Positions 734 through 63,831 of a stretch of DNA of 64,000 nucleotides are shown piece after piece. Both the position numbers and the translations under genes were made by a program. Source of the stretch: a virus. The notes beneath the pieces are model-generated. The model made no database searches. It worked only from the letters and a program-made list of their open reading frames with translations, and was not told the DNA's origin. Within the stretch, counting starts at the first letter, position 1. Every line of letters begins with the position of its first letter. The stretch covers positions 24,360-88,359 of IMG/VR virus record IMGVR_UViG_3300049811_000251. One strand, given 5' to 3'.

Positions 734-1750
734 TTAAATCTCCGGGAAAACGACCCCACTGAGGTCAAGGAATTGACGGTTTTTCTGTTGTCTTTCACAC
801 CACCTAGTCCAATGTTCAAAACTCATGTTTACGCCCCACTTTGTAAAGCAACTTACTCGGTGAGGGCACTTCTTAGCTCGCGTATCTTTTTCAGTTTTAC
901 ACGGTTGAAATACTTCCGGCAGTTTTCTATCTCTAATAGACTCCCAAACTATGCGTGCTTTTTGGCGTGCTTCGTACCACCAACTACTTGGAGCAGACCA
1001 TTGAATAATCTTACTGGCACAAGTATCACGCTCCATGTACCAGAAAAAAGTAGTCCTGATTCCGCTTAATCCTTGGTAAATAGCAGCCTGCATCTTATAG
1101 TAATCAGGAATATCACTTGATGACATTGTTTTCTTGTAAACATACGAATTTACTGTCTTGATCTCCAGTAAAGCGGTTTCTTTTCCTCCAACCGATTGGA
1201 GATCAGTACACAATTCCATAGCTTTACTGAAAATTTTGTTTTTCTTGCTTTCTAGGTATTGAAACCTAGATACGTCAATAATGCCGTCTGAATGTCCTGA
1301 AATTCTGTATAATGGGTGAAAGTAGGAAGGTTCTACATACAAATACGGAGGAGCTTCTTGCCTAGCGTTAGCTTCTAACGCATGTTCTGGATCAGGATGA
1401 AATCCTTCTACCGTTGAACCATCTCCTACTTTCAACCAAACTCCTTTCAAAATACCCATAGGCCCTAAAACTGAGTTTTGGATATAACTATGCAAGTGAG
1501 TTCCTATACTCATTGCAAAATAGGAACTAAAATTAAACGGCTTAGCTGGCTTAGGAGACCAGTAGTTTAATATAAACTCTCTAGGGCACAAATCACTTAT
1601 GCCACTAGCTCGTAATACAGTGCCAGCTTCTAGTTGAGTAGGCCACGCATCAACCCACTCTTTCACTACATTAACGAAGTTTTCGTACTTCTCTTTTTCA
1701 AGAGGTACTGAGGAAGCTGATAAAGTTCTATACGCATCAAGAATGCTCAT
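734..1750 (-). CDS. Cas4-like PD-(D/E)XK exonuclease
   Basis: S..SDLCPR, GHSDG, LLEIKT, QAAIY motifs and C-terminal C..C..C (PCKTEKDTRAKKCPHRVSC) consistent with an Fe-S staple. Confidence 0.8.
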   Translation of the reverse strand: MSILDAYRTLSASSVPLEKEKYENFVNVVKEWVDAWPTQLEAGTVLRASGISDLCPREFILNYWSPKPAKPFNFSSYFAMSIGTHLHSYIQNSVLGPMGILKGVWLKVGDGSTVEGFHPDPEHALEANARQEAPPYLYVEPSYFHPLYRISGHSDGIIDVSRFQYLESKKNKIFSKAMELCTDLQSVGGKETALLEIKTVNSYVYKKTMSSSDIPDYYKMQAAIYQGLSGIRTTFFWYMERDTCASKIIQWSAPSSWWYEARQKARIVWESIRDRKLPEVFQPCKTEKDTRAKKCPHRVSCFTKWGVNMSFEHWTRWCERQQKNRQFLDLSGVVFPEI

Positions 1751-2261
1751 TTTGTTTCGCCTTGTCCGTAGCTACCCAGAACTTTTCGTGAGTGCTTCCC
1801 CTAAATCCACCTTGAGTAAGAAACCCAGTTCTTACGAGGTTGTACCTGGCCCATCGAACTGTATTATGATCCAACCCTGTAAGTTGCATTAACTCCTTGT
1901 CAGTGCAACCAATTAAGGGAGTAGTAAGAACCTTGAAACCCTTTTTACAATGTTCCAAGATTCTTCGTTGCGTTTCTTTAGTAGAGACTTTAGAGTTAGG
2001 CTTAAGCCGTTCTTTTAATCCTCTAAGAACCTCGTCCAGTTTTTCCGCAAGGAATTCCTCTATTTCAACTTTAGTAATCAGCTCGGTAGGCTTAACAAAC
2101 TGCCTACCAATAATCTGAATTAAAGAGTCATCGAGAAAAGCCTTGATGACATATTCTTGAGTTTCTTCGGGAGGCTCGACTTGCCCTTCGATAGCCGTCT
2201 GGTCCAATTGATTGGAGAAATCGACTTCATCGAAGACCAACTCACCCTTAATAGCCATCAC
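1737..2261 (-). CDS. Hypothetical protein with C-terminal winged HTH
   Basis: TDKELMQLTGLDHNTVRWARYNLVRTGFL looks like a winged helix-turn-helix; overlaps neighbouring gene as in an operon. Confidence 0.55.
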   Translation of the reverse strand: MMAIKGELVFDEVDFSNQLDQTAIEGQVEPPEETQEYVIKAFLDDSLIQIIGRQFVKPTELITKVEIEEFLAEKLDEVLRGLKERLKPNSKVSTKETQRRILEHCKKGFKVLTTPLIGCTDKELMQLTGLDHNTVRWARYNLVRTGFLTQGGFRGSTHEKFWVATDKAKQNEHS

Positions 2262-2303
2262 AATTCTCCGAAGACGTGTAAAAGCGACAATCGCATTTTA
2301 CCG

Positions 2304-2687
2304 TCAACCTTCTTCGGAGTCAACGTTGACCAACTCAGTAAAAGTATCGAATGGAATCACAGCCCATCTCTTAGGTGTACCAACTCCGGCTGGAAGAGTT
2401 ATAACCAACGCAGGGGTTCTACCTTCCTCAGTAGCTTCTCTGGATATTTTAGCTAATGTAAGAAGGTCAAGTCTATAACTATCAAACGATGTTTCTTTTG
2501 ACTCAATCAAAAAATCCCTAGTCTTAACGTCCCCCTTATTTCGCATCCCCGCCCCCGAATTAGACTGAACCCTTCCGCCTAATTGAGAGGCTATCTCCTC
2601 CTCGGTTTGCCTAGCTTTTTGCTTAGCGGTTTTATTTTTCTTACCTATCTTGGTAAGACCTTCTATTCTTTTGTCACCGGCTGGCAT
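2304..2687 (-). CDS. Hjc-like Holliday junction resolvase (PD-(D/E)XK)
   Basis: EEEIASQLGGRVQSNSGAG..KGDV...FLIESKET pattern typical of phage Hjc-type resolvases. Confidence 0.7.
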   Translation of the reverse strand: MPAGDKRIEGLTKIGKKNKTAKQKARQTEEEIASQLGGRVQSNSGAGMRNKGDVKTRDFLIESKETSFDSYRLDLLTLAKISREATEEGRTPALVITLPAGVGTPKRWAVIPFDTFTELVNVDSEEG

Positions 2688-62715: not shown

Positions 62716-63116
62716 TACAAAGGCTCCACGTCTGTAAAATAGGAGGCGATTAACTCTTGATTAGTAAACACGTTACCTGTTGCTTGGGTTATGAAACGCA
62801 ACAGCTTGACTAATTCCTCTGAAGTATTGAATTCAGGGTCTTTGTACTGAATTTGATAAACTACCTCATAAACTCTTAAGATAGACCCTGATTCAAAAGA
62901 AGATTCAACTTGAAAACCCTTGCTTAGAAGCTCCTCCGCTCTTTTGTCACTTAAGGACCAATTAACGTACCTACTACGTTCTGTCACAGAGCACGCAGTA
63001 AGCTTACTTAATACTTGTTTAACTGGGTCAGTGTAGTCTAATACAGACTGCCAACTACGCAGCTTAACCCGCATAGTTAGTTCCAAACGATTGGAGGTAT
63101 CACTCGGTGCGAACAT
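62715..63116 (-). CDS. Hypothetical protein
   Basis: Operon-packed ORF. Confidence 0.55.
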   Translation of the reverse strand: MFAPSDTSNRLELTMRVKLRSWQSVLDYTDPVKQVLSKLTACSVTERSRYVNWSLSDKRAEELLSKGFQVESSFESGSILRVYEVVYQIQYKDPEFNTSEELVKLLRFITQATGNVFTNQELIASYFTDVEPL

Positions 63117-63276
63117 TTAATATCTCCATAGCCTTTAGATATTGTTTCGAGCTTAAGGTTCCTCCGAGTCTTTTGATGGCAATTAGATTATCTACAAAAT
63201 CTAACTCCCATCGAGTCAAGACTCCCTTATTTTTTAATTCTTTCAACTCTTCTAACAAACGTTCGTCGTCAGTCAT
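63100..63276 (-). CDS. Small hypothetical protein (58 aa, below ORF-track cutoff)
   Basis: Manual translation MTDDERLLEELKELKNKGVLTRWELDFVDNL...SSKQ...EILNVRTE*; fills the gap with overlaps at both ends. Confidence 0.65.
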   Translation of the reverse strand: MTDDERLLEELKELKNKGVLTRWELDFVDNLIAIKRLGGTLSSKQYLKAMEILNVRTE

Positions 63277-63551
63277 TGAGGAACCTCGTTAATCTCGGCG
63301 GTCAGTTCCGGCATAGTAAATCTACTAGCGGACCACACAGGTAGTTTATGAACTACCAACTCCATAGTGGAAGAGGGATTTAGCTTGGCTCTAAGGAGCA
63401 GCTTAAACCTAGGAGTTCCTTGAGAGGTTTTTCCGAGAAAAGTAATCTTATCAATTACTCCTCTAAAGTACCCGTTGTAGGAATATTTAACTCTGACCTC
63501 CATCCCAAGAGCCGCTTTGGCAAGCTTAGTCTGATTAACCGACATTCTCAT
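63273..63551 (-). CDS. Hypothetical protein
   Basis: Operon-packed ORF. Confidence 0.55.
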   Translation of the reverse strand: MRMSVNQTKLAKAALGMEVRVKYSYNGYFRGVIDKITFLGKTSQGTPRFKLLLRAKLNPSSTMELVVHKLPVWSASRFTMPELTAEINEVPQ

Positions 63552-63831
63552 TTAACACACCCTTTACAGCTTCCAAGTAATCCAACAATACTTTTTGCTG
63601 AATTACGTTTAGGTTAATTACTACGCTTAATGCTAAACTGTACGCATTAAGTCCGTCGATTTGAGCCTGCTCTAGATCAGGTTGGTTTAATAGAACTTGA
63701 ACTTTCTTATGTATGGTTTGCATAAGAAGTAGTTCATTGACTCCAACCGATTGGACGTTGTTTTCTACTAACTTAACCATAGCAGCTTGTAAAGGCTGCG
63801 ACATAACAATATCTGACTTAGGAATTGCCAT
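63535..63831 (-). CDS. Hypothetical protein
   Basis: Operon-packed ORF. Confidence 0.55.
   Translation of the reverse strand: MAIPKSDIVMSQPLQAAMVKLVENNVQSVGVNELLLMQTIHKKVQVLLNQPDLEQAQIDGLNAYSLALSVVINLNVIQQKVLLDYLEAVKGVLNENVG

Follow-up and report, generated by a model that had tools for sequence, protein, structure and literature searches.

The IncP plasmid RK2 carries 12 OB operators (TTTAGCSGCTAAA) of the protein KorB (PMC11790492, PMC13584720). Cluster O mycobacteriophages such as Corndog carry over 30 copies of a 17-bp palindrome, TGTTCGG-N3-CCGAACA, the function of which is unexplained (PMC4351075). Phage ParB-like proteins have been described as activators of DNA T-dioxygenases, and the ParBs associated with 5mYOX lack a DNA-binding domain (PMC13229309). 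Here, we describe a dense lattice of the palindrome TCCAA-N4-TTGGA in a viral DNA stretch of 64,000 nucleotides (the window, at its full length), which represents bases 24360-88359 of the 102,290-bp IMG/VR contig IMGVR_UViG_3300049811_000251. The contig is linear with an estimated completeness of 78% and a GC content of 41.6%, and almost all genes are encoded on the minus strand. Coordinates refer to the window unless stated otherwise. We suggest, with a probability of roughly 0.6, that an orphan ParB-like protein encoded by the phage itself (40297-41067, minus strand, 256 aa) docks at the palindrome, which would be the equivalent of parS, of the Noc-binding site (NBS) or of OB.

The lattice is real and strongly selected. 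The window contains 36 exact copies of TCCAA-N4-TTGGA, whereas dinucleotide shuffles yield 0.05 on average and at most 1, and the full contig contains 63. One-mismatch copies amount to 19 for the window and 44 for the contig, many of them with a motif-like centre. A previous interpretation made from the letters alone (the sequence-only reading) had proposed such a genome-wide lattice based on 34 exact and 11 one-mismatch copies in the window; the lattice stands and the counts are revised upwards. Synonymous-codon shuffles within genes retain on average 2.2 exact sites (maximum 8) compared to 41 observed in the shuffled regions, and one-mismatch sites inside genes number 33 compared to approximately 16 in codon shuffles. 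Gaps between sites on the contig range from 194 to 4701 bp with a mean of 1614 bp and a coefficient of variation (CV) of 0.63. This spacing is more even than expected under uniform placement, both for a CV as low (P = 5e-5) and for a minimum gap as large as 194 bp (P = 2.5e-4). The comparisons with codon shuffles and with random spacing had both been put forward in the sequence-only reading, and both bear the lattice out. Sites inside genes use all three reading frames (14/14/8) and encode the recurrent peptides SNxL(D/E), (L/V)QS(I/V)G and P(I/T)xW. The frame usage and the codon shuffles agree with the earlier argument that selection on the palindrome operates at the level of DNA and not of protein. 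Intergenic copies or copies straddling gene ends account for 27 of the 63 (43%), even though non-coding sequence makes up only about 7% of the contig, and 26 of the 63 are located deep within genes. The density of 6.5 sites per 10 kb is the highest among the compared contigs of the family, with the others at 1.5-4. The site density, together with the copies in coding sequence in every frame, indicates strong selection for coverage of the whole genome.

The palindrome is co-inherited with a single protein family. Of 16 contigs in which a full-length homologue of the ParB-like protein is encoded, 13 carry the general form T[C/G]CAA-N4-6-TTG[G/C]A at 1.5-6.5 copies per 10 kb, and the family contigs total 168 copies in 656 kb. 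Control loci, consisting of contigs with N-domain-only ParB relatives and the syntenic relative G001, contain 2 copies in 659 kb. The palindrome is absent from 40-odd loci with N-domain similarity only. Among nine contigs compared, which cover T4-like and gpA-terminase lineages and 36-67% GC, the ParB-like protein is the sole open reading frame family common to all. Head and terminase genes differ among these contigs, with a T4-type portal and gp23 in G036 and a gpA terminase here. In the ParB tree, every well-supported clade has a single motif type. The sequence-only reading had suggested looking for the motif in related phages, and relatives of the same lineage (L205, L208 and L210, with 67-68% TerL identity) indeed encode the ParB and carry the same motif. 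G001 shares 53 proteins with this phage (TerL 59-65% identical) and has neither a motif copy nor a ParB_N domain. Closer ParB homologues from a large protein collection (44-50% identity) are found on contigs with the order sugar operon, glycosyltransferase, ParB, TerS and TerL, where TCCAA-N4-TTGGA is the top palindrome. The sequence-only reading had listed the ParB_N protein at 40297-41067, a winged helix-turn-helix protein at 1737-2261 and the small terminase as candidate binders. Only the ParB-like protein gains from the comparison by co-occurring with the palindrome across unrelated lineages; the other two find no comparative support.

The association extends to phages with little else in common. 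G005, an unrelated complete phage (160 kb, 49% GC), carries 23 evenly spaced copies (CV 0.56, P = 0.002) and shares with this phage the ParB-like protein plus a few structural proteins and an epimerase. A search of viral contigs with the ParB alignment recovered full-length homologues accompanied by a sister palindrome. The sister palindrome takes the form CTGCAATCGATTGCAG in G036 (10 copies in 38 kb), TGCAA-N4/N5-TTGCA in G037 (22 in 94 kb) and TGCAATCATGATTGCA in G040 (12 in 40 kb), and G038 has six copies in 17 kb. Spacer length thus differs between phages (N4, N5 or N6). Among cultured phages, Stenotrophomonas phage DLP3 carries 31 copies of TGCAA-N4-TTGCA in 96.9 kb (CV 0.48, P < 5e-5) and Vibrio phage PG28 carries 10 copies, mostly TGCAATTAATTGCA. 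Both have the same ParB-terminase gene order as this phage, and the ParB-like protein is DLP3_104 in DLP3 and annotated as 'nucleoid occlusion protein' in PG28. The passages of the DLP3 paper retrieved by a search describe no such repeat (PMC7326821). A scan of viral contigs for the exact motif returned mostly chance singletons, and a megablast search with 20 kb of this DNA against cultured phages returned no match. The contigs G003 and G004 (27% GC) were rejected as lattice phages, as their motif copies are located inside repeated coding units resembling leucine-rich repeats.

Two further observations concern the sister lattices. In the T4-like G036 (loci L196 and L197; e.g., at 19110, 20732, 24383 and 33668), the sister palindrome is located inside longer perfect inverted repeats with copy-specific outer arms, and one copy is followed by a T-run and resembles a terminator built around the site. 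In G037, six and two overlapping or adjacent sister copies are found within about 230 bp (22122-22349) and about 50 bp (66698-66744), respectively. These clusters could be a centromere-like or origin-like array.

The ParB-like protein matches Pfam ParB_N (E 7.5e-9) and, over its full length, phrog_26387 (E 3e-25). The family profile retrieves Noc (7nfu) first at 1.6e-20, followed by ParB and KorB structures. In an AlphaFold 2 model with a predicted local distance difference test score (pLDDT) of 73, the N-domain superposes on Noc and ParB with Z scores around 14 and root-mean-square deviations (rmsd) of 1.5-1.8 Å. The match to Noc 7ng0 (VIA-align) reaches Z 14.6 and an rmsd of 1.5 Å over 95 residues. 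Model residues 7-156 superpose on KorB 51-195 (Z 13.7, rmsd 2.6 Å). Within this region, residues 114-156 (pLDDT 73-85) can be overlaid on KorB 150-195 and follow Noc as far as residue 169, a stretch shorter than a full ParB DNA-binding domain. The rest of the model consists of a low-confidence linker and a C-terminal alpha/beta domain without a clear structural match. The predicted fold combines a ParB/Noc N-domain with a helical segment that overlays the first part of the KorB/Noc DNA-binding domain. No CbiA/ParA family match was found in the 78% complete contig, and no ParA gene is located beside the ParB gene in any relative.

Read along the coding strand, the motif is (A)AC-TCCAAT-CRR-TTGGA. 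The ideal form of the site is the perfect palindrome ACTCCAATCGATTGGAGT, a symmetric 18-mer present in close relatives. None of the exact copies here has the perfect TCGA centre, and TCGA-centred sites have one arm mismatch (16472-16485, 35153-35166 and 45514-45527). ATCGAT is absent from the 102 kb compared to 21-32 expected occurrences, so that the imperfect centre in this phage is a by-product of restriction-site avoidance. The strand-polarised and never perfect core mostly reflects the complete avoidance of ATCGAT. G005 contains ATCGAT 40 times and has five perfect motif copies. Avoidance in the contig concerns 28 of 56 testable hexamer palindromes, which occur at 10% of expectation or less (observed/expected 0.39 overall and 1.09 for non-palindromic controls), and GCGC is found 6 times compared to 185 expected. 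The same avoidance of hexamer palindromes is found in G001 (30/64), G005 (34/64), G036 (23/32) and DLP3 (locus L219; 19/32), where avoided sites include BamHI, PstI, SacI, SphI and XhoI. The purge of about half of all 6-bp palindromes implies that these genomes are, or still are, exposed to restriction. The reported resistance of DLP3 DNA to 15 restriction enzymes (PMC7326821) may partly reflect missing sites.

The flanks of the motif are one-sided. A C directly precedes the core in 41 of the 63 copies (AC at positions -2/-1 of the coding strand), and the mirror G or GT at +15/+16 is not enriched. The relatives L205, L208 and L210 show the same flank polarity. The asymmetry could stem from coding constraints or from a directional function. 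Avoidance of an internal GGAG was considered as a cause and rejected, because neither an excess of G at +15 near starts (Fisher P = 1) nor a depletion of GGAG along the coding strand is seen.

Co-inheritance with the ParB family suggests that the ParB-like protein binds the palindrome, and spreading and a downstream output are likewise inferred. ParB-like dimers would nucleate at each palindrome copy and then, given an intact nucleotide switch, close into clamps that spread through 1-2 kb of flanking DNA. As sites recur every 1.6 kb, occupancy would extend over the entire phage chromosome and leave host DNA free. The most likely output would be a KorB-like, distance-tolerant control of transcription. 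Escort of a DNA-modifying enzyme or a link to packaging would be less likely outputs. A more speculative and rather doubtful version is a self-addressing lattice, where palindromes every 1-3 kb load a ParB-type clamp on phage DNA only and the clamp escorts a partner along the chromosome, confining post-replicative modification or packaging to phage DNA. For this partner, the neighboring glycosyltransferase or DNA-modification enzymes would be candidates, as would the terminase encoded immediately downstream.

Placement relative to promoters provides some clues on a transcriptional output. In L205, L208, L210 and L216, one motif copy separates the ParB stop codon from the terS promoter and another precedes the scaffold/capsid operon. 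These copies are 3-38 nt upstream of TTGACA-N16-TAnnnT promoters, with two per locus compared to 0.06-0.3 expected. By analogy, the promoter-proximal copies of the relatives have the geometry of class I KorB operators, and most copies are promoter-distant like class II and III operators (PMC11790492). In this phage, the sigma-70-like terS promoter (40273-40300, minus strand; TTGACA, 16 nt, TATAAT) overlaps the ParB stop codon and has lost the motif copy that the relatives keep just upstream. The motif occurs at 6 of 44 promoter-like sites here compared to 3.3 expected, which is not significant.

Several points weigh against docking by the ParB-like protein, and all the support for it is correlative. 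A Pfam search of the protein returned no helix-turn-helix (HTH). The protein's putative DNA-binding stretch is also short, with a pLDDT of only 73-85 in the model. In the alignment, the nucleotide-binding boxes are partly eroded. QPR of Box I is replaced by NPN, and GERR of Box II (GERRxRA) by GEHR, with the box reading GEHR(H/W)RAA. In Box III (ENxxR), the Asn is kept and the Arg, present in most homologues, is a His in this phage. As 5mYOX-associated ParBs have no DNA-binding domain (PMC13229309), the specificity could come from a partner. A further point is the asymmetry of the flanks (5' AC in 41 of 63 copies, 3' GT unmatched). Three of the 16 contigs with family members show no clear lattice, Arthrobacter phage KellEzio (27% ParB identity) shows none either, and the mixture of N4 and N5 spacers in G037 is awkward for a rigid dimer. 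G001 carries its own motif at some syntenic junctions without any ParB, which suggests that a non-ParB factor can do a similar job.

G001 also provides an argument for the alternative that survives best, which we nevertheless consider unlikely. Another phage or host protein, such as a small regulator or TerS, might bind the sites with the ParB-like gene hitch-hiking in the module. G001 (loci L119-L124) has a comparable dispersed 16-bp near-palindrome, GTGMAMCCGGKTKCAC, with 12 exact and 7 near copies (e.g., at 12082, 33866, 38411, 48481, 60814, 81343 and 89382). The copies are mostly located 5-56 nt past gene ends, and several precede TTGACA promoters by 25-35 nt. Neither of the two perfect forms, centred on CCCGGG or ACCGGT, was seen among exact GTGAA-N6-TTCAC copies. 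Synteny is partial and links the sites of this phage at 7610-7623 (near a gene 5' end), 26873-26886 (intergenic) and 51518-51531 (gene end with an ATG 7 nt downstream) to the G001 copies at 81343, 60814 and 33866, respectively. The lack of a Pfam HTH in the ParB-like protein and the three ParB-bearing contigs without a lattice also favor a different binder. However, no further open reading frame family is common to all lattice contigs, and the TerS and TerL families differ among lineages. The range of 36-58% GC among lattice phages argues against one shared host factor. In G001, the region upstream of terS encodes no recognisable DNA-binding domain besides TerS.

A somewhat less credible alternative is that the palindrome is the substrate of a site-specific DNA transaction, such as T5-like strand-specific nicking or base modification or glycosylation. 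The ParB-like protein would then be an activator, as in 5mYOX-ParB pairs, rather than a coat. The flank polarity common to all copies fits such a transaction, genes for an ATP-dependent ligase and for HNH nucleases are present in the phage, and phage ParB-like proteins activate T-dioxygenases on double-stranded DNA (PMC13229309). The gene neighborhood also points in this direction. A GT-B-like glycosyltransferase of 456 aa (41789-43159, minus strand) and an amino-sugar operon adjoin the ParB region here and in many relatives, including DLP3 with its digestion-resistant DNA. Homologues of the glycosyltransferase adjoin the ParB gene in many, though not all, lattice phages, and a glycosyltransferase of 460-490 aa does so in most lineages including the cultured KellEzio, PG28 and DLP3. 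However, complete G005 has no homologue of the 456-aa glycosyltransferase (BLAST, 1e-6). Neither this contig nor 10 related or lattice contigs, complete G005 among them, encode a recognisable Tet_JBP dioxygenase (PF12851), though a very divergent 5mYOX is possible. The purge of six-base palindromes implies restriction exposure and may itself explain the resistance of DLP3 to digestion.

The element could also act as an RNA or single-strand hairpin at gene junctions, where its 3' arm would overlap the Shine-Dalgarno sequence and the hairpin would be a translational operator, a processing site or a weak terminator. We consider this improbable. Beyond the 43% of copies at junctions, 32% of copies are found at -40 to +10 of a start codon compared to 8% at random, and the 3' arm, TTGGA(G), is often at Shine-Dalgarno distance from the start. 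An ATG follows 4 nt downstream of the gene junction copies at 3792-3805 (on the coding minus strand) and 21036-21049, and 7 nt downstream of 63082-63095. A start codon is located 15 nt downstream of 49059-49072. The arrangement GGAG, 7 nt, ATG is found at the intergenic copy 57848-57861, and GGAG, 4 nt, ATG at 63742-63755. The gene junction copy at 55422-55435 is 5' of an AAGGAG Shine-Dalgarno sequence, and 53790-53803 is near a gene 3' end and 5' of the next start. The lengthening of the palindrome by copy-specific flanks in G036, in one case followed by a T-run, and the variation in spacer among phages would also suit a hairpin. However, the predicted hairpin is weak (-3.4 to -4.5 kcal/mol), barely better than shuffles, and the arms are invariant rather than covarying within a genome. 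The 26 copies deep in genes occupy all frames, and the copies of the relatives upstream of -35 boxes would be outside of that transcript. Highly improbable, finally, are stoperator-like sites for a lysogenic repressor silencing a prophage as in cluster A mycobacteriophages. In favor of them, copies are dispersed in one orientation relative to transcription and the relatives DLP3 and DLP5 are temperate (PMC7326821, PMC5834331), but no integrase or ParA was found in the 78% complete contig, the core is palindromic rather than an asymmetric 13-mer and no repressor candidate covaries with the motif.

The remaining exact sites are found in every kind of position. One site is deep in a gene (1187-1200), one is close to the 5' end of the 1737-2261 gene (2203-2216) and one is near another gene 5' end (10709-10722). 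Copies at 4855-4868, 12182-12195, 14874-14887, 18023-18036, 18832-18845, 30042-30055, 47505-47518, 50050-50063, 50909-50922 and 57232-57245 are located within genes. A gene encoding 1327 aa contains two copies, 21838-21851 and 25268-25281, the latter close to its 5' end. Single copies are found within the portal gene (37572-37585), the radical SAM gene (43933-43946) and a GT2 gene (61441-61454), and at the 3' end of an RNase T-like gene (54263-54276). The copies at 9516-9529 and 60033-60046 are at gene junctions, 39557-39570 is at the terS/terL junction and 5679-5692 is intergenic. The intergenic copy at 33424-33437 is just 3' of the major capsid gene, and the L205 site at 18165 is equivalently placed after the capsid gene of that phage. 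One-mismatch sites include 12762-12775, which has a motif-like centre, as well as 17303-17316, 28764-28777, 30977-30990, 31919-31932, 32417-32430, 42572-42585, 48421-48434, 56389-56402 and 59159-59172.

The ParB-like gene is part of a conserved packaging neighborhood. Directly downstream is the gene for the small terminase (HTH_23; 39582-40253, minus strand), accompanied by the large terminase of gpA type (37891-39585, minus strand). The order amino-sugar genes, glycosyltransferase, ParB-like, TerS and TerL is conserved between the window (37891-43159) and the loci L205, L208, L210, L215, L216, L217, L218 and L219. This order spans Stenotrophomonas and Vibrio phages and many uncultured contigs with different terminase and capsid lineages. 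KellEzio retains the glycosyltransferase-ParB pair near the right genome end. Here, a 245-aa protein (41055-41792) is encoded between the glycosyltransferase and ParB genes and includes the motif copy at 41508-41521. The protein has no Pfam match, only a weak PHROG thymidylate-synthase match and no homologue in other lattice contigs. In close relatives, the glycosyltransferase gene directly abuts the ParB gene with no such gene in between. Pfam matches in the contig also include a portal, a radical SAM enzyme, a methyltransferase, a DegT aminotransferase and sugar epimerases. The ATP-dependent DNA ligase and the RNase T-like exonuclease are encoded at 61768-62715 and 54260-54826, respectively, and DLP3 encodes a ligase too. 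Two HNH_3 endonucleases are located at 12135-12689 and 13407-13898 of the contig. Upstream of the window, contig positions 17153-22412 (loci L137 and L138) encode a VWA-domain protein of 833 aa and a MoxR/CbbQ-like AAA+ ATPase of 520 aa, and both are conserved in G001.

Orphan ParB-like genes belong to the most common phage genes that lack an explanation, and one such family gains a predicted DNA target. With the proposed pairing comes a rule for recognition, in which half-sites read TCCAAT or TGCAAT, together with an architecture that covers the whole genome. The lineages include cultured and hence testable phages, namely Stenotrophomonas DLP3 and DLP5 and Vibrio PG28. If ParB binding proves true, clamp biology of the KorB/Noc type would extend from plasmids and chromosomes to tailed phages, and the long-standing puzzle of the Cluster O palindromes could also be explained. 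The sequence-only reading knew of no described phage system with this motif. Indeed, the pairing of this palindrome with a ParB-like protein is not described in the literature searched, and searches for the motif strings returned no description of the lattice and only coincidences such as synthetic VanO operator arrays. However, the Cluster O palindromes (PMC4351075) and the plasmid analogue KorB-OB (PMC11790492) are precedents that qualify the claim.

Known systems resemble the lattice to different degrees. Stoperators of cluster A are asymmetric 13-bp repressor sites of temperate phages, unlike the palindromic core in this 78% complete contig, in which no integrase was found. ParABS systems differ by their ParA ATPase, for which no gene is found near the ParB-like gene here or in relatives. 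The 5mYOX-associated ParBs (PMC13229309) are likewise orphan phage ParB-like proteins with an N-terminal nucleotide-binding domain and a C-terminal domain, encoded beside glycosyltransferase, methyltransferase, sugar and terminase genes. However, a TET/JBP dioxygenase was undetected in the lattice contigs searched, and PMC13229309 describes no long cognate palindrome. The sister lattices of TGCAAT-N2-ATTGCA (TGCAATCGATTGCA; DLP3, PG28 and G036-G040) share the ParB family, the even spacing and, in DLP3, PG28 and G036, the glycosyltransferase-ParB-TerS-TerL order. Their half-site is TGCAAT rather than TCCAAT, with G instead of C at position 2, and their density is 2-4 times lower, whereas the perfect centre is avoided here with the purge of ATCGAT.

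Among phages, the nearest precedent is the Cluster O palindrome of 17 bp. Those sites are also spread across a lytic-looking phage of about 70 kb, between genes, near 5' ends and inside genes, and mostly off promoters. A protein with a ParB-like domain, gp90 in Corndog and likened here by its description, is encoded, and O-methyltransferase and glycosyltransferase genes are displaced near the terminase. The sequence and the host differ, and PMC4351075 proposes no link to ParB. The N-domain is matched best, in sequence and in fold, by Noc-NBS and ParB-parS of Bacillus subtilis (PMC8429893). Noc, too, is an orphan ParB paralogue binding a dispersed palindrome of 14-16 bp, though the site sequence differs and about 70 NBS are found in 4.2 Mb compared to 63 sites in 0.1 Mb here. 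KorB-OB on RK2 likewise unites a protein of the ParB fold and numerous palindromic sites dispersed over one replicon. Some sites directly precede -35 boxes and others are kilobases away from promoters, and the predicted model superposes on KorB 51-195 (Z 13.7). The replicon here is a tailed phage rather than a plasmid, the site density is 3-4 times higher (one per 1.6 kb) with many copies in coding sequence, and the nucleotide-binding motifs are partly eroded with a canonical HTH undetected. No ParA/IncC is seen here, and no KorA either, though no search was aimed at KorA-like proteins. KorB-OB on RK2 is the closest mechanistic analogue of the lattice, and Noc and ParB are the closest structural relatives of its ParB-like protein.

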